DNA of 64,000 nucleotides from Bdellovibrio sp. (GCA_036676395.1 JAKFCY010000002.1:480001-544000), one strand, 5' to 3'; counted from the first letter of the stretch, positions 2,303-13,555 are shown. A program made the numbers and translations. Notes: generated by a model from the letters alone, not told the origin.

Positions 2303-3490
2303 ATGAAACTGAAACAACTTTACTATGCTCACGTCTTTTTGCTTTCCGCATTGGGCTCAGTCATAGCTTGTTCGCCAACTAAGTTTACTCCGGCAGTTGC
2401 TGTAAATGCAGACTGTACTACTGGGTGCGTGGTTAATCCTGATGGAACTAAAAAATGGGATGAAACACACAAAGTTGGAACGGGTAAGGTTGATATCTTA
2501 TTTGTTAATGATAATTCGGCTTCAATGTCAGTGGTTCAACATCGTTTAGCTCAAGCTTTTGGTGGATTTATCGAAAGACTTGATTCTCGCGAAATCGATT
2601 ATAAAATTGCAATGACAACAACTGATGCAACTAAGCTTTCTTCGACTCCATTATTATCTTTTGGCAATGGAACTACATTTTTAACCAAAGCTGATTCTAA
2701 TCGTGTTGCTCTTTTTAATGGTTCAATCGTTAGAACTGAAACTACAAATTGCGAAAATGTGATTAAATCTTTCTATAATACATATGGTCCTAGTTTTCAA
2801 ACTCGCAATGACTATGTTGCTGCTTACAATAATGCTTGTGCTTCAGGCGATGAACGTGGAATTTTAGCAGCTAACCATATTTTGAAAAATAATTCTGGTA
2901 GTTTTGTACGTGCAGATGCTCATTTAAATATTATTGTGATTTCAAATGAAGATGTTCGCAGTGGAAATACTGGATCTTTTACAACGGAAGATCGCGCGTC
3001 AAATTTAACTGCTACTGTTAACTCTGCTTTTGCGAGCAAATACTGGGAATTTAATTCAATTATTACTAAAGATGCGGTTTGTGCTCAGACGCAAAAATCA
3101 CAATTTAGAACTGCATCTGGCCAAGAAATCAAAGATCAGAACGGTAACTATGTAATTGGTGCTAACCCAGGTATAGAATACGCAGCTTTATCTGCATCTG
3201 CATCACAAGATATTGATGGTAATGCACAACCTCGCGGTCAAATTATTGATATTTGCCAAACGAACTACTCAGCTCACTTTAACAATATGGCAACCAAGGT
3301 TGCGGACTCTGCTCGTATGTTCAATTTAAAATGTAATCCTGCAGTAGCGCCAATAGTTGAAATCGTTGGTAACCCAGCGGCGACAGTTCCGCACACTTGG
3401 AATGGAAATCACATCGTGTTCAACCGTGGCTCTGAAGGTATTAATGTTCGCGTAAAATACAACTGTCCACAAACAGGTGGAGTTCAGTAA
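2303..3490 (+). CDS. Putative lipoprotein with vWA domain
   Basis: Lipobox-like VIAC after a hydrophobic N-terminus; DILFVNDNSASM gives a MIDAS DxSxS motif; several Cys pairs; RBS gaggtg. Confidence 0.75.
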   Translation: MKLKQLYYAHVFLLSALGSVIACSPTKFTPAVAVNADCTTGCVVNPDGTKKWDETHKVGTGKVDILFVNDNSASMSVVQHRLAQAFGGFIERLDSREIDYKIAMTTTDATKLSSTPLLSFGNGTTFLTKADSNRVALFNGSIVRTETTNCENVIKSFYNTYGPSFQTRNDYVAAYNNACASGDERGILAANHILKNNSGSFVRADAHLNIIVISNEDVRSGNTGSFTTEDRASNLTATVNSAFASKYWEFNSIITKDAVCAQTQKSQFRTASGQEIKDQNGNYVIGANPGIEYAALSASASQDIDGNAQPRGQIIDICQTNYSAHFNNMATKVADSARMFNLKCNPAVAPIVEIVGNPAATVPHTWNGNHIVFNRGSEGINVRVKYNCPQTGGVQ

Positions 3491-3551
3491 GAAACAGCAT
3501 AATGGATAAAGTTATCCATTGAGTCATCGCAAAATTATTCTAAGTTCGATC

Positions 3552-3582
3552 AAAGAGCGTCTTAAGTTGAGACGCTCTTTTT
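3552..3582 (+). terminator. Intrinsic terminator
   Basis: aaagagcgtct-N7-agacgctcttt followed by T-rich tail. Confidence 0.8.
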
Positions 3583-3655
3583 ATTTTTGCTAATTACTCT
3601 CGTAAAATTCATAAAAAATTCAATTTTACGAATTCAACAACCGATCATTTGTCAT

Positions 3656-4345
3656 ATGGCAATGGTAGACAGATACAAAAAATCAGGTGGCTTCATTCAA
3701 CTATTACAAGTTATTGAAACTTGTGGTCCTAAAAAGCGTGAGCAATTTATGAAAATCATAAATGAGGAAACTCCAAGATGGGGAGAAGCGATCGTAGCTA
3801 AAATGCTAAGCTTTGAAAAAATTCTTTCGTGGAAGCCAGAAGCCATCATGGAAATTACAGCACAAATGAATCCATTAGCTTTTGGTACAGCTTTAAAATC
3901 GTTACCTCAAGAGAAGTTCGATGAGTTTGCGGCGAAGCTTGGTCCTCAAGAGCGTCGTAAGTTCGAACAACTTTATAAAGAAGGTACTCCTGCGCCGAAT
4001 GAAATTTCTGCGTGCTTAGTGAAAGTGATTAATGAAACTCGTTTGTTATTCGCAGCAGGTACATTAAAATTTGATAAGATTGATCCTGATCTAACTATTC
4101 CTGACGAAATCGAAAGTAAATTAGAAAAAGGCAGCTTAGGAAGCGGTCCATCTTCTGGTGGTAATCGTACGGCTGAAGATGTAGTTAAAGAAGCTTCCGC
4201 TTCTTCAGGTATCCAATTAGGTAACCCGAATGAGGTCGATTCTTTACGTCGGAAAATTGTTGAGCTCAATAACGTGGTGATGGCTCTTAAAAAAGACAAC
4301 ACCTCGATGAAAGATAAGCTCGATAAAATCAAAAAGATCGCTTAA
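3656..4345 (+). CDS. FliG C-terminal-like domain protein with C-terminal coiled coil
   Basis: Start moved to ATG 3656 (MAMVDRYKK). Helical segment resembles FliG-C; heptad pattern at the C-terminus. Confidence 0.55.
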   Translation: MAMVDRYKKSGGFIQLLQVIETCGPKKREQFMKIINEETPRWGEAIVAKMLSFEKILSWKPEAIMEITAQMNPLAFGTALKSLPQEKFDEFAAKLGPQERRKFEQLYKEGTPAPNEISACLVKVINETRLLFAAGTLKFDKIDPDLTIPDEIESKLEKGSLGSGPSSGGNRTAEDVVKEASASSGIQLGNPNEVDSLRRKIVELNNVVMALKKDNTSMKDKLDKIKKIA

Positions 4346-4369
4346 ATAGCTTTATTTTGTAGCAACGTT

Positions 4370-4567: not shown

Positions 4568-4644
<77 letters not shown>

Positions 4645-4703
4645 ATTATTAAAAATCCCAAAAAAATCAATAGCTTAAAAATCCCAGATCCATTTACCCT
4701 GCT

Positions 4704-4978
4704 TTACCCCTGCCGCTTTTTATTTTTCCCTAAAGATTTAACAACATTATCAAATGTAGATCGATCTCGTTGAGCATTTACCATTTTTGTTTTCACACTT
4801 GAGTTACAAGATGTTGCTGTGAAATAGTTAAGTCGCCAGTCATATTTAAAATCTCTTTAGTGCCTCCGTGACGTAAGATATGCGTGCCGGTGTAGTCGAA
4901 GCCAGCTTTCTTATATGCAGTCGTGTAGATGTTGTAGGCCACTTTGTATTTCAAAGTGTTTCTTATGTGATGACCTAA
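4704..4978 (-). pseudogene. Tyrosine recombinase (integrase) C-terminal remnant
   Basis: Manual translation: ...AYKKAGFDYTGTHILRHGGTKEILNMTGDLTISQQHL, then a 1-nt frameshift into NSSVKTKMVNAQRD... HxLRH box at 4868-4882; expected catalytic Tyr reads Asn; N-terminal part absent. Confidence 0.8.
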
Positions 4979-4981
4979 GAA

Positions 4982-6262
4982 TTAATCGTCCACCAGTGGA
5001 ATCCGAATTTCAATATTAGTTCCAACGCCTATTTTGGATTGGATCGCCAAAGTCCCGCCGGCACTTTCTAAAGTTTTTCGTGCATGAAAGATGCCGAGAC
5101 CATTACCTGCAGCTTTTGAGTCTTGCTTTCCGAAGCTAATTTCGCGAGACCCAAGTACTTCTAAGATATGATCAGGAATTCCTATTCCATTATCCATAAT
5201 TGAAATGAGAGCAAGCTTATCAAAATATCTCAGGTTAACTCTAACTTCACCGACTGACTCAATGGATTCAATAGCGTTGTTTAAAATGTTGGACAAAATT
5301 CGACCGATATCTCCATCGTTAATATTTGTCGAAACAAGTTTGGCGTCTAGGTCCAAGCTTAGCTGGATTTTGTTCCCAACTAAGCCTTGCGCTTCTTTTT
5401 CTTTAGCTATGTTACTAATGATTTGATCGAGCTGTGAGTGTCCGTTGGCTTGAGTACTTTGATAACGCTCACTTCGCGATTTTGCATTGTTTAGCAAATC
5501 ATCTGCAATTTGATTAATTCTATTAACAGAGTTTTCTATAAGTTCTTTTTGTTCGTGCGGCAGACTGTTATCTAAAGTGCTCAATACGACATTTAATGTA
5601 GAGAGTGGAGATCGAATATCATGTGCCACTTGCTTACTTAAAGAAACGATTGCCTTATCTTTTTCTACAGCGATTGCTTGTTGTTGGTAAGCTTTAAAAC
5701 GATCTGCCATCTCCCAAGCTAAAGCCCAAGCGGCAGAAAAATTTAACGATAATGGATGTGGAATATTCGCTGTGGAAAATAGTTTTTTAAAAGACAGAAC
5801 CATTTCGGAGCTTAAGTATCTTAAAACTATTATCGAAATAAAAATTATACCTACAAAACAAAGTGAAACGACTTTTAAAAAATCCCAGGGTATCGGATTT
5901 GGTCTGCAAAAATCTATGTCGAACTCAAAATACTGCTGAGTAACACACTGTCCGTCGGCTTGAAGTTTTTTATTTCCGCTTACGAATCTATCGGGATTGT
6001 TTAGCTCAGAAATAGCTACATAATATTCTTCATCCTTAAGTGATATCTTTTGAGTGAAGTCTCGTTTGTTTGTGCTTTTTAAGTAATGTCCATTCCCTTC
6101 TAAAATTAGACGGAACTCATAGTTAACTAGATCTTTATTTTTTTGATTAGTAATAGAGATGATACCGAAAACAGTGATGGCAAAAAGTATGATAGCTGTG
6201 GAGATGATGACACCCGAAATTAATTCAGGATTTACGCGAGTTAGGCGAGAGGATGAGGCCAT
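4982..6262 (-). CDS. Membrane sensor histidine kinase (HisKA + HATPase)
   Basis: Two TM segments; H-box VAHDIRSPL; N-box NILNNAIES; G-boxes DNGIGI and GNGLGIF. Confidence 0.95.
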   Translation of the reverse strand: MASSSRLTRVNPELISGVIISTAIILFAITVFGIISITNQKNKDLVNYEFRLILEGNGHYLKSTNKRDFTQKISLKDEEYYVAISELNNPDRFVSGNKKLQADGQCVTQQYFEFDIDFCRPNPIPWDFLKVVSLCFVGIIFISIIVLRYLSSEMVLSFKKLFSTANIPHPLSLNFSAAWALAWEMADRFKAYQQQAIAVEKDKAIVSLSKQVAHDIRSPLSTLNVVLSTLDNSLPHEQKELIENSVNRINQIADDLLNNAKSRSERYQSTQANGHSQLDQIISNIAKEKEAQGLVGNKIQLSLDLDAKLVSTNINDGDIGRILSNILNNAIESIESVGEVRVNLRYFDKLALISIMDNGIGIPDHILEVLGSREISFGKQDSKAAGNGLGIFHARKTLESAGGTLAIQSKIGVGTNIEIRIPLVDD

Positions 6263-7167
6263 GAATTTATTCCTTTAATAGATTGAGTGCCCCAAGTTAA
6301 TTTATCCCAAGCAGGATTTGATGCGTATGCAACGGCAGGAAAATTTTGTGCTGGGGTCAATAAATTGATACTTATTTTATCTAGATTAAACAACTTTACT
6401 GGTGCTTTTGTAAAATCACCCTTTATTAAAAACTGAAAGGCTTCTAAATTTGCAGGTACCGAATAAAACTGTCTGTGGTCTTCAGGAATACCAACTGATG
6501 GCAATTTGACTGAGTCGACAATTTTTTGAAAATAAGAATTTTTCGCTAAAGAGATTAACAGTTTTTCTTCAGCGAGGTCGTTAAGAAAGCATGAATCAAA
6601 AATTGCTCCTAATTGTTTATGAATTATGAAACAAGTTAATACGTTGCCGGCACTGGAACTGACTTCGAACATGTAGGTTTTCCAACCATTTAAAGCCAAG
6701 CCAACACACAAAAGCTTATTTTTAAAACGTTGTACTTTAACTTTTTTCCAACCCGTTTTTTGCTGCCATGCTTGAATCAAGACGGCACGCTCTATAAGTT
6801 CTTCTCTAGATTTTTCTTGAGCCATAGAGTTAGTAGCACCAGCAGCAAATCCATTTGAGTTTTCCACTTGTGAAAAAGCAGGATTGCTACTATTTAAATG
6901 CTTTAACCACAGTCTTTCCCAAGCTTCTGCAAAAGCTTTTTGCATGGCTTTTAAATTAGATCGGTCAACACTATGGCCGATAGCTGTTTGATTAAATCCG
7001 CTAATTGTACATTCGTAAAAGTTAAAAGGAAAAAGGCCACCTGTATATTGGGCAAACTCCCAAACGATGGGAACCGTAAAACCATTTGAATCCTTCAATA
7101 AAGAAGTTTTGGACATCAGAAAATCTAGATCCCCAGGCCAGGTGAAATTATTTTCGGCGTAGGTCAT
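6241..7167 (-). CDS. Stand-alone YcaO-family protein
   Basis: YcaO motifs AMQKAFAEAWER and SNGFAAG...EELIER; C-terminal WPHPLA. Start placed at ATG 7167. Confidence 0.85.
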   Translation of the reverse strand: MTYAENNFTWPGDLDFLMSKTSLLKDSNGFTVPIVWEFAQYTGGLFPFNFYECTISGFNQTAIGHSVDRSNLKAMQKAFAEAWERLWLKHLNSSNPAFSQVENSNGFAAGATNSMAQEKSREELIERAVLIQAWQQKTGWKKVKVQRFKNKLLCVGLALNGWKTYMFEVSSSAGNVLTCFIIHKQLGAIFDSCFLNDLAEEKLLISLAKNSYFQKIVDSVKLPSVGIPEDHRQFYSVPANLEAFQFLIKGDFTKAPVKLFNLDKISINLLTPAQNFPAVAYASNPAWDKLTWGTQSIKGINSWPHPLA

Positions 7168-8554
7168 AAATACGAATTCGAGCGTCAAATTGATTCCAGT
7201 TAGAGGCATCGATATTTTCGCTTAACAAATATCGTTGTGTTCCAGTCATAAAAGGAATGGCGATAATTTTTCTCAGAATCGTTTCATGAAGGTTTAGCAG
7301 ATGTTGTTGTCGATTTTTTAGATCAACAGCATTAAATACTTGATCGTATTCTTTTTGAAAATTTACGCTCCAGGTGCTGAGTTGTCCAAACGGAGGGCTA
7401 GCTAAAAATGACCACGAGCCAGAAGCATCCTGTTGATTGCCTAAAAAAGAATAAACTCCTGCAAATTCATCATTATTAAAGGTCAAGCGATCTGTGTATT
7501 CAAACTCAGCCTTGATGTCATGATCTAAAAAAATCTGCTGCATTTTTTCTGTTAATTTTGGCATTTCTTTAAAGTTTGCACCTAATCTTATTTTGATAAT
7601 CAAAGTTGAAATGGCTTTTAATGGCTTTACATTCGGAGTGACATTTAAGCGCCCGTTGAAGCCCTTAGGGATCATCTGATCTTCCAGGAATAGTGAATTA
7701 TCAGGATCCGTTAACACCGAGACATAATCTCTGATTTCTTTTATAGCAGAAGCAAAAATTTGTCTGTTATTAATATCAAGGGCTTGTTTGTCTTGAGAAT
7801 TAAAGTGGAAAAATGTAATACTCATGGGATGCGATGACCAGATCTGTCTTGCGTTTGGTAAAACCATTTTTGTGTTTTTTAGGCTTGCTGCTGCGACGAT
7901 AGGAACAACATCGAAATGAATAGTTTTAAAAATCTGATTTCTTAAAGAAGGGTCCTTTAATTGTGTTAAAACAGCACTCATCGGCATTTCATCATTAAAG
8001 AGTGGGGAAAGTTTATTTGCAGAAAGCAATAGGGCACGTTCTGCATAGTTCCATGACTCAACAAAGTATGGTCCGACCGTTTTTGACCAACCAACCGTTT
8101 TATAATTAGAAGGGAACAAGCCTGAGTCTGCTAAAGAAAGCTCGTGAAGAATAGTAGTATCCATTTCAATTGGAAAATGAATTTTTAAAACACGCTCAGC
8201 TTCTAAAAACGTCACCTTATCAGCTAAGCTTAAATATTTAATATGCCTTTTGCTTCCAGTTCGAAGTGATTCTATCCATCCTAAAATTTCTTCTGAAGTA
8301 ACAGGGGTCCCATCAGACCATTTTCTTTGTGGCAAATGAAACACCCAAGTTTTTGGATCTTCTTGATAAAACCGATCAGCAAGACACCCTTCATAACCTG
8401 TCGCTGAAAACTTAGAATCTCGCACCAGTCCACAAGAAATATTTTCAAGTAAGTAATATTCCCAAATAGTTTCTGTATTATCGGGATCAAGGAGAGCTGG
8501 GGTTTCCTTTAGAAGCACAACTGGGAATAAAATTTTTATTGATGGCTTAGACAT
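7148..8554 (-). CDS. Family-5 (OppA/DppA-like) solute-binding protein; N-terminal anchor lies out of frame upstream
   Basis: LDP...ENISCGLV, KWSDGTPVTSEEI, VGPYFVESW and C-terminal IAIPF pattern typical of SBP_bac_5. Confidence 0.85.
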   Translation of the reverse strand: MSKPSIKILFPVVLLKETPALLDPDNTETIWEYYLLENISCGLVRDSKFSATGYEGCLADRFYQEDPKTWVFHLPQRKWSDGTPVTSEEILGWIESLRTGSKRHIKYLSLADKVTFLEAERVLKIHFPIEMDTTILHELSLADSGLFPSNYKTVGWSKTVGPYFVESWNYAERALLLSANKLSPLFNDEMPMSAVLTQLKDPSLRNQIFKTIHFDVVPIVAAASLKNTKMVLPNARQIWSSHPMSITFFHFNSQDKQALDINNRQIFASAIKEIRDYVSVLTDPDNSLFLEDQMIPKGFNGRLNVTPNVKPLKAISTLIIKIRLGANFKEMPKLTEKMQQIFLDHDIKAEFEYTDRLTFNNDEFAGVYSFLGNQQDASGSWSFLASPPFGQLSTWSVNFQKEYDQVFNAVDLKNRQQHLLNLHETILRKIIAIPFMTGTQRYLLSENIDASNWNQFDARIRIYDLRRK

Positions 8555-8635
8555 AATTTCCTTTTTAACAAAGATAGCAAAAAAAAATGCTATAGTTAAA
8601 AAAAAACTGCTAAAGATGATTTTAGCCTAGGAGTT

Positions 8636-8857
8636 TTAATCATTTTTTTTAATCGCTGTACAGTCCGTCGGTCCACAGTTTACGAGCGCACTATTTTCTT
8701 TCAAGTCTTTAATATCTATTTTTTTAATGTCGTTAACCTGATTTTTTTTATGTTCAGTTTTTAAGTCTTGGTTAATTGGACCAATTTGCAATTTAAATGC
8801 AGATGCTGTTCCAGCAAACATCACAATCGAACCAAGTAAAGATAAAAGCATTTTCAT
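8636..8857 (-). CDS. 73-aa secreted peptide, candidate YcaO substrate (RiPP precursor)
   Basis: RBS aagggg before ATG 8857; signal peptide MKMLLSLLGSIVMFAGTASA; C-terminal NCGPTDCTAIKKND; first gene of the operon. Confidence 0.7.
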   Translation of the reverse strand: MKMLLSLLGSIVMFAGTASAFKLQIGPINQDLKTEHKKNQVNDIKKIDIKDLKENSALVNCGPTDCTAIKKND

Positions 8858-9171: not shown

Positions 9172-9429
9172 ATGCAAAATACAAATCCAAAACAATTTCG
9201 TGCTGAAATGAAAGATTACCTAGAGCTTGCAGCTAAGGAACCTATCCGCATTCAGCGTCGTGCCGGTGATTCTTATATCTTAGTTAAAGAAGAAGCTTAT
9301 CAAGAAATGCAGAACGAGATTTTATCTCTGCAAAGACGCTTACTTGGTATGTCACAGGCTGTTTCTGGACAGACTCAAGAATATAAAATTGGTGATCGAT
9401 CTAGATTAAAAAGACTTACACGAAAGTAA
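9172..9429 (+). CDS. Phd/YefM-family antitoxin
   Basis: N-terminus NPKQFRAEMKDYLELAAKEPIRIQRR...ILVKEEAY fits the Phd fold; RBS gaggt. Confidence 0.85.
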   Translation: MQNTNPKQFRAEMKDYLELAAKEPIRIQRRAGDSYILVKEEAYQEMQNEILSLQRRLLGMSQAVSGQTQEYKIGDRSRLKRLTRK

Positions 9430-9432
9430 TCT

Positions 9433-9768
9433 GTGACCAAATTTATTTTAACAGACCAGTACAATAGCTCACTTGAGCGTATTGAAGACCATATTCTTAC
9501 AACAGCAGATATTTCTCATGTAGAAAAGTTCTTAGATGAACACGATCGCTTATTAAAGTTTATCGAACAAAACCCTGCAACTGCCGCAGTTCATCCACTC
9601 ACAGGAGACCAAACTTGGGTCTTTGCTAGTGGGCGATATCGCGTATTTTATAAAGCTGTTGATATTAGTGCCACGCTAACAATCTTCATGACCGATATTA
9701 TCGACAATCGTGAATTAAATAAGAAAATCTATCCTGCGAATAGTATTCCGACTTACGATGAAGATTAG
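9433..9768 (+). CDS. RelE/ParE-family toxin
   Basis: 111 aa, 3 nt downstream of the antitoxin; LERIEDHI, NP and YRVFY motifs. Confidence 0.75.
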   Translation: MTKFILTDQYNSSLERIEDHILTTADISHVEKFLDEHDRLLKFIEQNPATAAVHPLTGDQTWVFASGRYRVFYKAVDISATLTIFMTDIIDNRELNKKIYPANSIPTYDED

Positions 9769-9929: not shown

Positions 9930-9950
9930 CCTATCGCCCCGACCAATTAT
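9930..9950 (+). repeat. attR core (21 bp)
   Basis: Identical to 4629-4649. Confidence 0.92.
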
Positions 9951-10056
9951 CTAAAATATTTCATTTTACAAACTACATAAAAGCCTAAGTCGCAAAATTT
10001 ATAGCTAAATTTTTGTTATATTCGATAGCTAAAACTCGAGAGCTGATTCAATAAAA

Positions 10057-11940
10057 TTATTGTAAACGTAGTTTCTTACGAAAATACCAAATCAATAAAT
10101 TCTTTGAATAGTTTTGATCTAAGTTTTTTTCTGACAACGCATTAGAACTTTCAGCCACACGTAATGAAATCATAAATGAGATCGTAAGATTTAATAGGCC
10201 AGTTACGACAACTCCAAGTAAGGCCAAATAAATCGCTGGCTCAGAAAAAATTCCAAAGCCTAACGTATAAATGGCTGCAGCAAGTGTTCCCGAGGATAGC
10301 GTAACATGGCGAACATCTATTGGCAGACCTAAAAATTCTCCCATGATTGGAACAATTCCAAGTGTAAAACCAAGAGCCGCATTTCCACAAAGTGCGCCAA
10401 AATTATTTTTTATAAAATTCACCCAGGCTGCTTTTTTTACATGCGACAGAAATGGAAATATTTTTGGTGAGTTCATAATGATTTCATCAAACTTGTAAAC
10501 CTTAAAAAAGTTATCTGCAGCTCCCGTGATGAAAGTTGAAAACCATAAAATATAACCCGTAAGGAAAGCATAAAATGGTGTAAAACTAAAAATAGACATG
10601 GAGGCGATTTGCGCCTGAGCTTTTTCAGCACTCATAAAGCTCTGACTAAATACAATTTGGGATAGGAACGAAATGAGTAATACTGTAGGTATAACAATTC
10701 CTACATTGCCCAGCACAGCCAAGAACTGAGATTTAAATACGGAATCAATTTCAGCTAAAATCTCTTTTTTCGATAATTTATCCCATTGATAATTTAAATG
10801 CGCCGCGATTGCTGCCGGTTGTTTGGTGGCTAAAGTAAAACCTAATAAGTAAATAACGATAAAACTTAAGGCGTAATTTAAACTGTAAATAAAGCCCAGC
10901 AGAAATGGCGCTACATGCAAATACGATGAAAGGGTTTTTAATAAAACAGTGAATCCAGTGATAAAGCCGCCACCACAAGCGCTGGTAAAAAGTTTGGTGA
11001 TCGCCTGACGTGAACGGCCGACATAATAGTCACCTTTTTCTGCGCTGGTGAGCGATACGACCTCAATAAGTTGGCTGCTGTAATGAAAAAATTGAAATTT
11101 AAGAGAATAGAAGTTTTTTCGTTCAATAAGAATAGCGGCCAAATATTTAAAACTAAAACCGTCATAAAGTTTTATTAAATTTTGGAGTCTAATTAGCCGT
11201 GATTTTACTTTTTTAATTCGAAATAGTGAATTTAGCTGGACACCAGTTTCGCGAAAATCATCAACGATTGAATCGATGCCCTTCAAATTGTTTGCAGTTA
11301 ACTGGATAAGTAATTCTGTATCTCTGATCTCTGTGAGGCTAATAACTTGCAGTGTTTTTACAAAGTCTGAATTAAATTTACCAGAGGATGTCATTTTAAA
11401 GACCGATGAATAAATGTCGGACATGTTTTTGTTAGCCAGAATATAAATGGCCCGTATTAAAGACTGTCTGATTTCATTTTTTAAATAAATGATTTTATCA
11501 GGCGGGAAGTAGCTAAGAATTTTGTTAAGTTGAGATTGGTCTACATTTAAAGATTCATCAAAGTGAAAATCCAGCTGTAACGCCTCATCAACTAAATGCG
11601 AAATTTCACAGTCATTCGATGGAACAGTTATAAATTTTTGACAAAACGCCCAAATCACTTCGTGAATAAATGAGTCTGATTCGCCACTGAAGGTATGCAC
11701 CAGCAGCGAATCAAATTGTATGTTCTCAATAAAAACCAGCCATTGCTGGACAAAAACCTCTCGAAACAATGGGTCTTTTTCAAGTAAATTATTGAGGTCA
11801 TCAATTCTTTGATTAAGAGTAGTTTTACCATTGGTGTTTAATAACCAAGTGGCAAACATAATGTACCAATTCCAATCCCACTCTTTGCCCTGATGTGTTC
11901 CGAACGAAAGTAATTCAGGCAGGCTTATTTTTTGAGACAT
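10057..11940 (-). CDS. Polytopic membrane protein of the Gcr / SpecificRecomb family
   Basis: GGGFITGFT, LNYALSF, FTLATKQPA and RHVTLSSG motifs; many TM helices in the C-terminal half. Confidence 0.75.
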   Translation of the reverse strand: MSQKISLPELLSFGTHQGKEWDWNWYIMFATWLLNTNGKTTLNQRIDDLNNLLEKDPLFREVFVQQWLVFIENIQFDSLLVHTFSGESDSFIHEVIWAFCQKFITVPSNDCEISHLVDEALQLDFHFDESLNVDQSQLNKILSYFPPDKIIYLKNEIRQSLIRAIYILANKNMSDIYSSVFKMTSSGKFNSDFVKTLQVISLTEIRDTELLIQLTANNLKGIDSIVDDFRETGVQLNSLFRIKKVKSRLIRLQNLIKLYDGFSFKYLAAILIERKNFYSLKFQFFHYSSQLIEVVSLTSAEKGDYYVGRSRQAITKLFTSACGGGFITGFTVLLKTLSSYLHVAPFLLGFIYSLNYALSFIVIYLLGFTLATKQPAAIAAHLNYQWDKLSKKEILAEIDSVFKSQFLAVLGNVGIVIPTVLLISFLSQIVFSQSFMSAEKAQAQIASMSIFSFTPFYAFLTGYILWFSTFITGAADNFFKVYKFDEIIMNSPKIFPFLSHVKKAAWVNFIKNNFGALCGNAALGFTLGIVPIMGEFLGLPIDVRHVTLSSGTLAAAIYTLGFGIFSEPAIYLALLGVVVTGLLNLTISFMISLRVAESSNALSEKNLDQNYSKNLLIWYFRKKLRLQ

Positions 11941-11966
11941 ACTTATTCCACCATTAAAGCTAAAGA

Positions 11967-12962
11967 CTATAAGTTATTGTTAAGTACCTGCCACATCGGC
12001 TTTGTTGACGGGACCATGTCTTGCATGAAGTACCACCAAAAATATCCTCCGATAAAACGGTCTTGCGAAATATTCATTCTATAATAACGTTCAATCATAT
12101 CTGTTTTCGCGGCTTGTGATTTAATTGTTCCGATTTCGCCAAAACCAATTTTAGAATTTGGAAACATTTGTGCAAGTTTTGCAAATACATCTTCCCAGTT
12201 AGGACGTAAGCCGTTGCAATCATCTTCGTAGTAACTGACAAACACATATTCAAGACCTGACTTCATTCTTGCGGGAACATTTTTACCGGCCCATGTAAAC
12301 ATCTCTTCGCTTGGATACATCCAGCAGGCTTCGTTATAGTATAAAGTGAGGGCTGTGGTTTTACCTTTTGATTTAATAAAATCATAGGCGCTCGTCATTT
12401 TCTGCGCGACTTCAGCGGCGTTACCTAGCCATTCTCCGTTAATTTCATTACCGATTTCCCAGATATCAACATAGGCATTAAGTGCGTTGTAATACTCTTC
12501 TGTGCGGGCTAAGTACTGCGCCGGTGTCACGTTTTTTACGTAGAAAGAATCTAACAATTCACCCATGACATAACTTACGCCGTGAATTTTTTGTGTAGGA
12601 CTTACGTAGTACGAAGCACTCATACCTTCATCAAACACAATTCGTGTGGTGGGTTTTTGTGACAGAGTTTTTAATGAGTTAACCGTATCATTGATATTTG
12701 CGACAGAATCAATGGTTACTCCATACATTTTTGTTGAGGGTGTTGGGTTAGGAGTTGGCGTTTGCGAAACCGGTGGGGTTTGTGAAACTGTAGGTGTTCC
12801 GGAAGTTATAGGTGTTGTTGGATCTTCAGGAGTTGAATCTGCGGTCTGGTTATTTGAACCAGACGAGCTTGTAGAATCTTTTTTGCAAGAAAAAGACGTT
12901 AAGGTTAAGATTAATAATAGAGAAATGACTATATTTTTTTTTGTTTTATTTCTTTTTTGCAT
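11967..12962 (-). CDS. Lipoprotein with TIM-barrel glycoside-hydrolase-like domain
   Basis: Lipobox SFSC; Pro/Thr linker; WEIGNEING and GFGEIG resemble clan GH-A acid/base and nucleophile motifs. Confidence 0.65.
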   Translation of the reverse strand: MQKRNKTKKNIVISLLLILTLTSFSCKKDSTSSSGSNNQTADSTPEDPTTPITSGTPTVSQTPPVSQTPTPNPTPSTKMYGVTIDSVANINDTVNSLKTLSQKPTTRIVFDEGMSASYYVSPTQKIHGVSYVMGELLDSFYVKNVTPAQYLARTEEYYNALNAYVDIWEIGNEINGEWLGNAAEVAQKMTSAYDFIKSKGKTTALTLYYNEACWMYPSEEMFTWAGKNVPARMKSGLEYVFVSYYEDDCNGLRPNWEDVFAKLAQMFPNSKIGFGEIGTIKSQAAKTDMIERYYRMNISQDRFIGGYFWWYFMQDMVPSTKPMWQVLNNNL

Positions 12963-13201: not shown

Positions 13202-13555
13202 TTATTTGGCAGCTACGATTTCGCTGAGCTCTAAACTAACTTGTTTAAATTCTTGATCTAATGACTGCGCGATGGGTTTTGCCTGAGTTAAATCTTTAGC
13301 TTGTCCCATTTTTTCTAATTGCAGACAAAGTTGTGAAAGTCGCAAAGCGCCCATATTGCCAGAGCTTGATTTTAAGCTATGAGCTTTGTCTTGAACGCCA
13401 AGGGCATCGCCTGCAGCGATCGCATTATGAAGATCAGTTATAATTGTTTCGCTGGTTGAAATGAAAACGGTGTGTAGTTCTGCTAATAATTCCAAGCCAC
13501 CTAAAGCTTTTAGATTTTCAATGACATCTGCATCCACACTTTTTACCTGATTCAT
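13202..13555 (-). CDS. Hpt-domain phosphotransfer protein
   Basis: AHSLKSSSGNMGA motif. Confidence 0.92.
   Translation of the reverse strand: MNQVKSVDADVIENLKALGGLELLAELHTVFISTSETIITDLHNAIAAGDALGVQDKAHSLKSSSGNMGALRLSQLCLQLEKMGQAKDLTQAKPIAQSLDQEFKQVSLELSEIVAAK

Follow-up and report, generated by a model that had tools for sequence, protein, structure and literature searches.

A mini-YcaO, a family-5 binding protein and an orphan histidine kinase beside a short secreted peptide gene: a candidate make-and-sense cassette on a Bdellovibrio tRNA-Pro islet

What do a short secreted peptide, a family-5 solute-binding protein (SBP), a small YcaO enzyme and a sensor histidine kinase do together on one small islet? 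The question is raised by a 64,000-nt stretch of Bdellovibrio sp. (GCA_036676395.1 JAKFCY010000002.1:480001-544000), here called the window, to whose whole length all coordinates refer. A reading of its sequence alone (the sequence-only reading) had proposed that four co-directional genes on a mobile island make a modified peptide and sense it. All four open reading frames (ORFs) lie where that reading placed them, on the minus strand (Table 1). The overlap it gave for YcaO and kinase is 22 nt, as claimed; the 20 nt that it gave for SBP and YcaO hold with a YcaO start at Met15 (7167), which homologues favour, and become 62 nt from the first ATG. Tentatively, and at somewhat less than an even chance, we favour the view that the four genes are one self-contained make-and-sense module, in which a YcaO-modified peptide is read by the SBP and the kinase.

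Family searches give little hold on the enzyme. Against Pfam PF02624 the window's YcaO scores 18.7 bits, under the 25.7 gathering threshold, and a genome-wide Pfam search returned no match; NCBIfam offered nothing useful for YcaO or SBP, its thresholds not being reached. A precomputed PF02624 match exists for 14 of 22 homologues, and the YcaO profile matches solved structures only weakly by sequence (best E 0.047). Yet the fold confirms the assignment. In a structure model with pLDDT 90 (residues 1–18 disordered), all top Foldseek matches are YcaO structures, and VIA-align gives Z scores of 19.7 to McbD (264 residues aligned, rmsd 3.5), 17.5 to LynD, 17.1 to the ATP-dependent peptidase YcaO 7u58, 17.0 to M. 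kandleri YcaO, 16.1 to M. jannaschii YcaO, 14.6 to E. coli YcaO and 12.2 to TruD; unrelated chains reach 6.6 or less. As modelled, the mini-YcaO has the YcaO fold. Its profile, run against 1.84 billion representative proteins, matched 121 clusters at E <= 1e-30 and 254 when the limit was E <= 1e-10. With few exceptions the best 150 listed measure about 300 aa or less, and the nearest Atlas clusters are labelled mostly Bdellovibrionota.

The catalytic motifs are equally well kept. Across 23 YcaO sequences, E95, E98, R99, E137 and R141 are invariant, forming paired ExxER motifs, and within an SNGFAAG stretch (SNGxAxG) G120–A123 are invariant and G124 nearly so. The acidic and SNGFAAG motifs of the window's enzyme find their counterparts, by alignment, in M. 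jannaschii YcaO (MJ1094). We take the five charged residues and the SNGFAAG stretch to be the ATP/Mg site. ATP/Mg-binding residues of YcaO were reportedly described by Dunbar et al. in 2014. The C terminus, SWPHPLA here and PWPHPLA in most orthologues, is PxPxP-like; the wider mini-YcaO family keeps only xPHPx, with Pro-His-Pro two or three residues from the end. A C-terminal PxPxP is called canonical for azoline-forming YcaOs in an excerpt of PMC12670281. Structural alignment to azoline formers reaches the last residue, and to thioamide formers it stops at 306–314. TfuA (PF07812) has no match in this 99.3%-complete genome and was detected in a control genome. Together, the PxPxP-like end, the alignment to the last residue and the lack of TfuA favour cyclodehydration of precursor Cys61 onto the Asn60 carbonyl. 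Thioamidation without TfuA, which exists according to an excerpt of PMC13063428, or ATP-driven cleavage (7u58 being among the fold matches) may be alternative chemistries.

The presumed substrate is encoded at the head of the cassette. Its ATG (8857) is preceded by an AGGGG Shine-Dalgarno sequence, a longer reading of 92 aa from 8914 also exists, and the stop codon occupies 8638–8636. As expected of a small secreted peptide, it has one N-terminal hydrophobic segment, ending Ala-Ser-Ala20. Seven close orthologues are 65–97% identical to it, and over the eight aligned precursors conservation covers the signal and a large part of the Lys-rich middle. N60, C61 and C66 are invariant in all eight; the four residues between Cys61 and Cys66 occur in six versions. 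By sequence, this variable loop resembles the specificity variation of peptide signals. We searched for precursors elsewhere as ORFs of 30–130 aa ending no more than 260 nt upstream of the SBP start, with a hydrophobic window in the first 45 residues and Asn-Cys in the last 25. Of 19 non-redundant loci, 12 have such an ORF, whereas among 1233 small ORFs from other places in the same DNA 2 fit the description. On inspection an Asn-Cys ORF is also found in L005, L006, L012 and L059; the strict test had missed these because of masking, overlap or the choice of start. In Elusimicrobiota the precursors contain one Cys each.

The kinase is unambiguous, with HisKA (PF00512, 31.2 bits) and HATPase_c (PF02518, 61.2 bits) and two hydrophobic segments, as the sequence-only reading had it. 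H214 is invariant, as are R67, C106 and C119 in the periplasmic loop of about 90 residues. Its conserved N terminus (Met-Ala-x-Ser-Ser-Arg) owes its conservation to being the other frame of the WPHPLA-stop of YcaO. In related loci, a sigma-54 type regulator lies downstream in L011 only, and the Elusimicrobiota kinases carry weak receiver-like tails.

The binding protein repeats the pattern of YcaO, scoring below threshold (27.9 bits against PF00496, SBP_bac_5, cut-off 32.4) yet confirmed by its fold. PF00496 is found in 37 of the 41 proteins of its homologue list, the window's included. The model (pLDDT 92.6) has 170 PDB matches at E <= 1e-3, those listed all being of family-5 type (AapF, OppA, MppA, NikA, DppA and CntA). 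The best is AapF of Pseudomonas sp. PDC86 (PDB 7kz8/7kz9; E 4e-27, TMq 0.79, 13–14% identity), and the modelled fold is of the peptide/opine/metallophore type. An ORF and Pfam survey of the repeat-bounded islet bore out the claim that it encodes no permease, ATPase, response regulator or exporter; beside the cassette in related loci, too, the SBP has no ABC permease and ATPase partner (the rest of the genome was not searched). Upstream of the SBP ATG the frame stays open for 24 anchor-like codons, encoding Lys, a 17-residue hydrophobic stretch and Lys-Lys-Glu. Of 21 evaluable loci, 17 have an anchor of this kind preceded by an ordinary start codon; in the window and L053 the anchor codons stand without one, and L007 and L055 fall below the hydrophobicity cut. 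The called starts of two orthologues (86% and 73% identical) are a few hydrophobic residues ahead of the Met that corresponds to the window's SBP ATG; in them, too, the frame is open and codes for hydrophobic residues. Cys41 and Cys57 occur both in 39 sequences, neither in 42 and one only in 2; this co-occurrence probably reflects one clade and thus lends weak support to a disulfide and a periplasmic location.

Conservation carries the argument that these genes belong together. A YcaO profile built from 22 homologues, searched against species genomes, found 12 loci (Bdellovibrionales/Bdellovibrionaceae 5, Oligoflexales 1, Elusimicrobiota 5, Armatimonadota 1). The SBP is directly upstream on the same strand in all 12 and the kinase directly downstream in 10; at L012 the contig ends, and at L007 there is none. 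Within the family, a mini-YcaO match at E <= 1e-3 is present in 78 of 182 genomes, mostly as distant paralogues. An SBP and/or a kinase adjoins YcaO in 28 of the best 30 family loci, and neither neighbour was seen on the short pieces L033 (2256 nt) and L036 (1799 nt); the link persists in family paralogues whose matches range from E 1e-4 to 1e-18. Scanning metagenomes with the SBP profile brought in 19 more loci of the same order. Counting all loci with a YcaO match, duplicates included, 51/53 have an SBP and/or a kinase adjoining and 31/53 have all three. The 22-nt YcaO/kinase overlap recurs in 21/36 loci, which indicates translational coupling. Because it recurs in other phyla, the arrangement goes far beyond chance. 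Two expectations of the sequence-only reading are thereby borne out: SBP, YcaO and kinase keep one order and strand in Bdellovibrionota, Elusimicrobiota and metagenome contigs, and a short ORF with C-terminal Asn-Cys recurs just upstream of the SBP.

Some loci are of separate interest. L009 (an Elusimicrobiota metagenome-assembled genome) and L010 (an Armatimonadota one) agree fully in their SBP and YcaO ORFs and in their kinase and precursor matches, through either a binning error or very recent transfer, and were counted as one locus. In L007, L050 and L051 the SBP is without an anchor, and the sole candidate precursor overlaps the SBP start and has Asn-Arg-Cys, not Asn-Cys. Paralogue layouts are mostly SBP-YcaO-kinase, with eight of the form YcaO-gap-SBP. 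The gap holds a 97–99-aa secreted protein ending in a Cys-Trp-Thr motif in four of these (L022, L027, L039 and L042) and a 118-aa secreted ORF without Cys in L031; none was seen in L025, L037 or L040. At L063 of genome G059 a kinase gene (3019-4356), whose product shares 46% identity with the window's, immediately precedes an SBP gene; no peptide ORF separates the two, and there may be two cassettes in tandem.

From these parts we infer substrate and product, the two binding steps and the output of the make-and-sense module. The ATP-dependent mini-YcaO would modify the precursor in the cytoplasm at the Asn60-Cys61 amide, most likely by cyclodehydration to a thiazoline, and the modified precursor would be exported via Sec, with cleavage after Ala20. 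In the periplasm its C-terminal core would be bound by the family-5 SBP, anchored in the membrane and without a transporter. Once loaded, the SBP would act on the orphan kinase at that protein's periplasmic loop of 90 residues, and the kinase would signal to an unlinked response regulator. The interpretation of the cassette as a peptide make-and-sense unit, as the sequence-only reading framed it, is partly supported.

Several points weigh against such a module. YcaO needs ATP and is without a signal, and the peptide is Sec-exported, so modification must precede export. That order is rare to highly unusual among peptides made on the ribosome and modified after translation (RiPPs) according to an excerpt of PMC12452194, which gives bufferins as a precedent. 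The 53-aa mature peptide would not readily get out of a diderm cell, which makes cell-to-cell signalling doubtful; the circuit may be confined to the producing cell. In the 5.3-kb islet there is no E1-like/ocin-ThiF or RiPP recognition element (RRE) partner, dehydrogenase, protease or exporter, and no E1-like/RRE partner or SagB-type dehydrogenase was seen beside the cassette in related loci. Nor does the islet encode a response regulator. No kinase lies beside YcaO in one Elusimicrobia lineage (L007, L050 and L051), L059 has SBP and kinase without YcaO, and no Asn-Cys ORF was seen upstream of the SBP in L007, L053 or L065. As for the SBP anchor, the window's 24 codons include no ATG, GTG or TTG start, 24 of 41 SBP homologues as called are without it, and positive-inside counts give 10 N-in, 5 N-out and 9 ties.

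How might an anchor without a start codon be translated? The ATG that was said to overlap the peptide stop exists (8643-8641); what it opens is a 15-codon mini-ORF in another frame, not the SBP, ending at a TAA inside a run of nine T (T9). This mini-ORF would be joined to the anchor and the SBP if ribosomes slipped by -1 on U UUU UUU or if RNA polymerase inserted an additional U at the T9 run. Transcript slippage on A/T runs in bacteria is documented in an excerpt of PMC1088944. An assembly slip does not account for the T9 run: an independent assembly, possibly of the same source, is identical in this region, and contigs from two other studies, about 6% divergent (270 differences/4194 nt), cover the run without an indel. 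In the longer related contig all 11 gap letters fall outside it; the related strains may have substitutions within the run. RNA folding around it gave no structure better than shuffles (z -1.4), so we claim no frameshift-stimulating hairpin. A second nine-T run (8579-8587) lies in the anchor stretch, 11 nt after the first, and contains three Phe codons in the SBP frame. The alternatives to recoding are a non-standard initiation codon or an anchor-less SBP made from ATG 8554, which has its own AAGGA.

These features can be drawn together into a bolder form of the signalling proposal, which we hold to be unlikely, if not strikingly so. Here the cassette would be a portable, strain-specific signal unit of diderm bacteria: YcaO would set a heterocycle at Asn-Cys of a Sec-exported peptide, the four-residue inter-Cys loop would define pherotypes, the anchored, transporter-less SBP and orphan kinase would read them, and in this lineage synthesis of the anchored SBP would be tied to translation of the peptide gene by re-initiation at the overlapping ATG and then a -1 shift or slippage on T9.

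The islet is bounded by direct repeats at a tRNA-Pro gene, and its 5.3 kb contain the four-gene cassette, a Phd/ParE-like pair and a 53-codon ORF, and nothing else. The cassette is single-copy in the genome. Its SBP has an orthologue at E <= 1e-40 in 5 of 182 family genomes, this one included, and in none of the 51 other genomes of the genus. This distribution fits horizontal arrival, and with the tRNA-Pro repeats it supports the mobile-island claim. The 53-codon ORF is possibly a recombinase remnant, judged from a short motif; Pfam and PHROG searches gave it no match. Contigs of two related strains cease to match left of 4907, within this ORF, so the left islet end differs between strains. 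A 21-nt repeat, D2 (6379 and 9399, 81%), was considered and looks like chance, and promoter and terminator scans stayed at chance level.

Table 1 Features of the islet and its cassette (coordinates in the window; minus-strand genes given 5' to 3' where so reported).
Feature	Coordinates	Strand	Basis
Peptide precursor, 73 aa: Sec-type signal 1-20, Lys-rich conserved middle, C-terminal Asn60-Cys61-x4-Cys66 core	8857..8636	-	
Mini-ORF, 15 codons; ATG (8643-8641) overlaps peptide stop, TAA inside T9 run	8596..8643	-	
T9 run, U UUU UUU UAA in mini-ORF frame	8598..8606	-	
Anchor-like 24 codons upstream of SBP ATG, in SBP frame	8555..8626	-	open frame of 492 aa
Family-5 (cluster C) SBP, 468 aa from first in-frame ATG	8554..7148	-	
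Mini-YcaO, 308 aa from Met15 (322 aa from first ATG 7209)	7167..6241	-	Pfam (weak), alignment, model
Orphan sensor histidine kinase, 426 aa: first transmembrane segment 17-35, periplasmic loop ~38-127, second transmembrane segment 129-147, HisKA, HATPase_c	6262..4982	-	
tRNA-Pro (UGG), islet integration site	4568..4644	+	ARAGORN, Rfam
Left direct repeat: tRNA-Pro 3' end and 12 nt	4629..4656		repeat search
Right direct repeat, 93% identical to left over 28 nt	9930..9957		repeat search
53-codon ORF, possible C-terminal tyrosine recombinase remnant	4793..4954	-	H-x-L-R-H-like stretch read by eye
Phd/YefM-like antitoxin (9172-9429) and ParE/RelE-like toxin (9433-9768)	9172..9768	+	Pfam at/under threshold; PHROGs

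The surroundings are varied. The window opens with the end of a 23S rRNA gene, followed by a 5S rRNA gene (Rfam). Between the rRNA genes and tRNA-Pro (2303-4345) lie a MIDAS-family adhesin-like gene (NF052240, E 3e-76, below cut-off) and a gene for a 252-aa protein with a FliG C-terminal domain. Right of the 9930-9957 repeat, 10057-12962 carries a gene for a site-specific recombinase of PF10136 (627 aa, E 8e-104), together with a 331-aa ORF of no known family; this may be a second mobile element in tandem. A stand-alone Hpt phosphotransfer protein (PF01627, E 4e-15) is encoded at 13202-13555, outside the islet and 3.2 kb past it.

The main rival to the make-and-sense module keeps the same parts and changes the stimulus. 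A YcaO-made thiazoline/Cys peptide would chelate metal or react with oxidants in the periplasm, a NikA/CntA-like SBP would read the peptide once loaded, and the kinase would report the metal or redox state of the envelope, cell-autonomously. NikA, CntA and NikZ fit the SBP model roughly as closely as OppA does, the kinase loop has its two invariant Cys, and the mature peptide, by its size, would probably not pass out of a diderm cell with ease. Copper-binding bufferins, in the excerpted PMC12452194, are a known case of Cys peptides that are modified in the cytoplasm and exported by Sec. Against this, no metal-related gene is found in the islet by Pfam or NCBIfam, the single Cys of Elusimicrobiota precursors is thin for a chelator, and the hypervariable inter-Cys loop fits recognition specificity better. 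We consider the metal/redox proposal unlikely.

The mini-YcaO might instead act on a protein, be it the SBP, the kinase or an unlinked one, as E. coli YcaO does on ribosomal protein uL16, leaving the peptide as an unmodified ligand or accessory of the SBP-kinase pair. Stand-alone protein-modifying YcaOs exist, according to the excerpted PMC13063428. The enzyme's lack of an RRE partner would agree with such a role, and the SBP/YcaO gene overlap suggests coupled synthesis. However, the SBP is anchored or exported in most loci and the kinase Cys residues are periplasmic, which puts both beyond an ATP enzyme's reach once folded, and the peptide's Asn-Cys is the only short invariant Cys motif that travels with YcaO. 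A protein substrate seems quite doubtful.

Autoinduction of an antimicrobial RiPP, in which SBP and kinase would sense a bacteriocin-like product for production or immunity, is in our judgement decidedly improbable. NisK senses nisin in this manner. Among solved YcaOs, McbD of microcin B17 is nearest in fold, and the cassette sits on a mobile islet with a toxin-antitoxin pair. Yet the islet has no exporter, immunity gene, dehydrogenase or leader protease; there is one conserved modifiable site, not many azole sites; and the cross-phylum kinase link points to sensing as the core function. That the genes are chance neighbours or a decaying remnant, sharing an islet and no function, is hardly credible: the start-less SBP anchor, a recombinase that is at best a remnant and the sub-threshold Pfam scores of YcaO and SBP would speak for it, but all frames are intact, catalytic motifs are invariant and both models are confident, and the same order and 22-nt overlap across phyla already contradict it.

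How far, then, does the make-and-sense module resemble anything described? LuxP-LuxQ and TorT-TorS show that a periplasmic binding protein can be the co-sensor of a histidine kinase. The window shares with them a transporter-less binding protein encoded beside a two-transmembrane kinase with a periplasmic loop; it differs in that the SBP is of family 5 and membrane-anchored in most loci, and that one operon would supply both the presumed ligand and its modification. For the present pair, gene linkage suggests such co-sensing. In the agr (AgrD/AgrB/AgrC) and comQXPA systems of Gram-positives, precursor, modifying enzyme and sensing kinase share one operon. That layout is echoed here, as is a variable segment between conserved residues akin to pherotype variation, whereas no part is homologous, the host is diderm, export is by Sec, an SBP is interposed and no response regulator is adjacent. 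AapF offers a family-5 SBP used for a signal (HEHEAA) rather than a nutrient. It is part of an ABC importer that supplies a LuxR-type receptor in the cytoplasm, whereas the present islet has a kinase and no transporter.

On the enzyme side, the azoline YcaOs McbD, LynD and TruD have the same fold and paired acidic motifs; the window's C terminus resembles the PxPxP motif, and a Cys lies beside the presumed target amide. Unlike these azoline formers, the present enzyme has only ~308 aa, no E1-like/RRE partner, no dehydrogenase and a single conserved site, its substrate carries a Sec signal instead of a leader, and it is linked to an SBP and a kinase. Bufferins, as excerpted in PMC12452194, share the Sec signal, the conserved Cys and cytoplasmic modification before export; here a YcaO stands in place of an MNIO with a DUF2063 partner, there is no copper context, and SBP and kinase are in the unit. 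Full-text literature searches, including YcaO with Bdellovibrio and with sensor kinase, found no paper on a layout of YcaO, histidine kinase and SBP, and those joining YcaO, Sec signal peptide and RiPP found only work on MNIO enzymes. None of the closest known systems has this combination. New from the window are the tRNA-Pro islet borders, the variable inter-Cys loop, the overlap-driven conservation of the kinase N terminus, and the start-less anchor with its T9 run.

If the make-and-sense module is real, YcaO backbone chemistry would serve signalling rather than antibiotic production in Gram-negative-type cells, for which kinase-sensed modified-peptide signals are not established. With a size near the minimum for a YcaO and no need of the usual partners, the enzyme would be a convenient model for how substrates are recognized. 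Recoding at the start of the SBP, if true, would be a natural case of frameshift-dependent membrane anchoring of a receptor. With few genes, self-contained on a 5.3-kb islet, the cassette could be moved to a laboratory host for direct testing.

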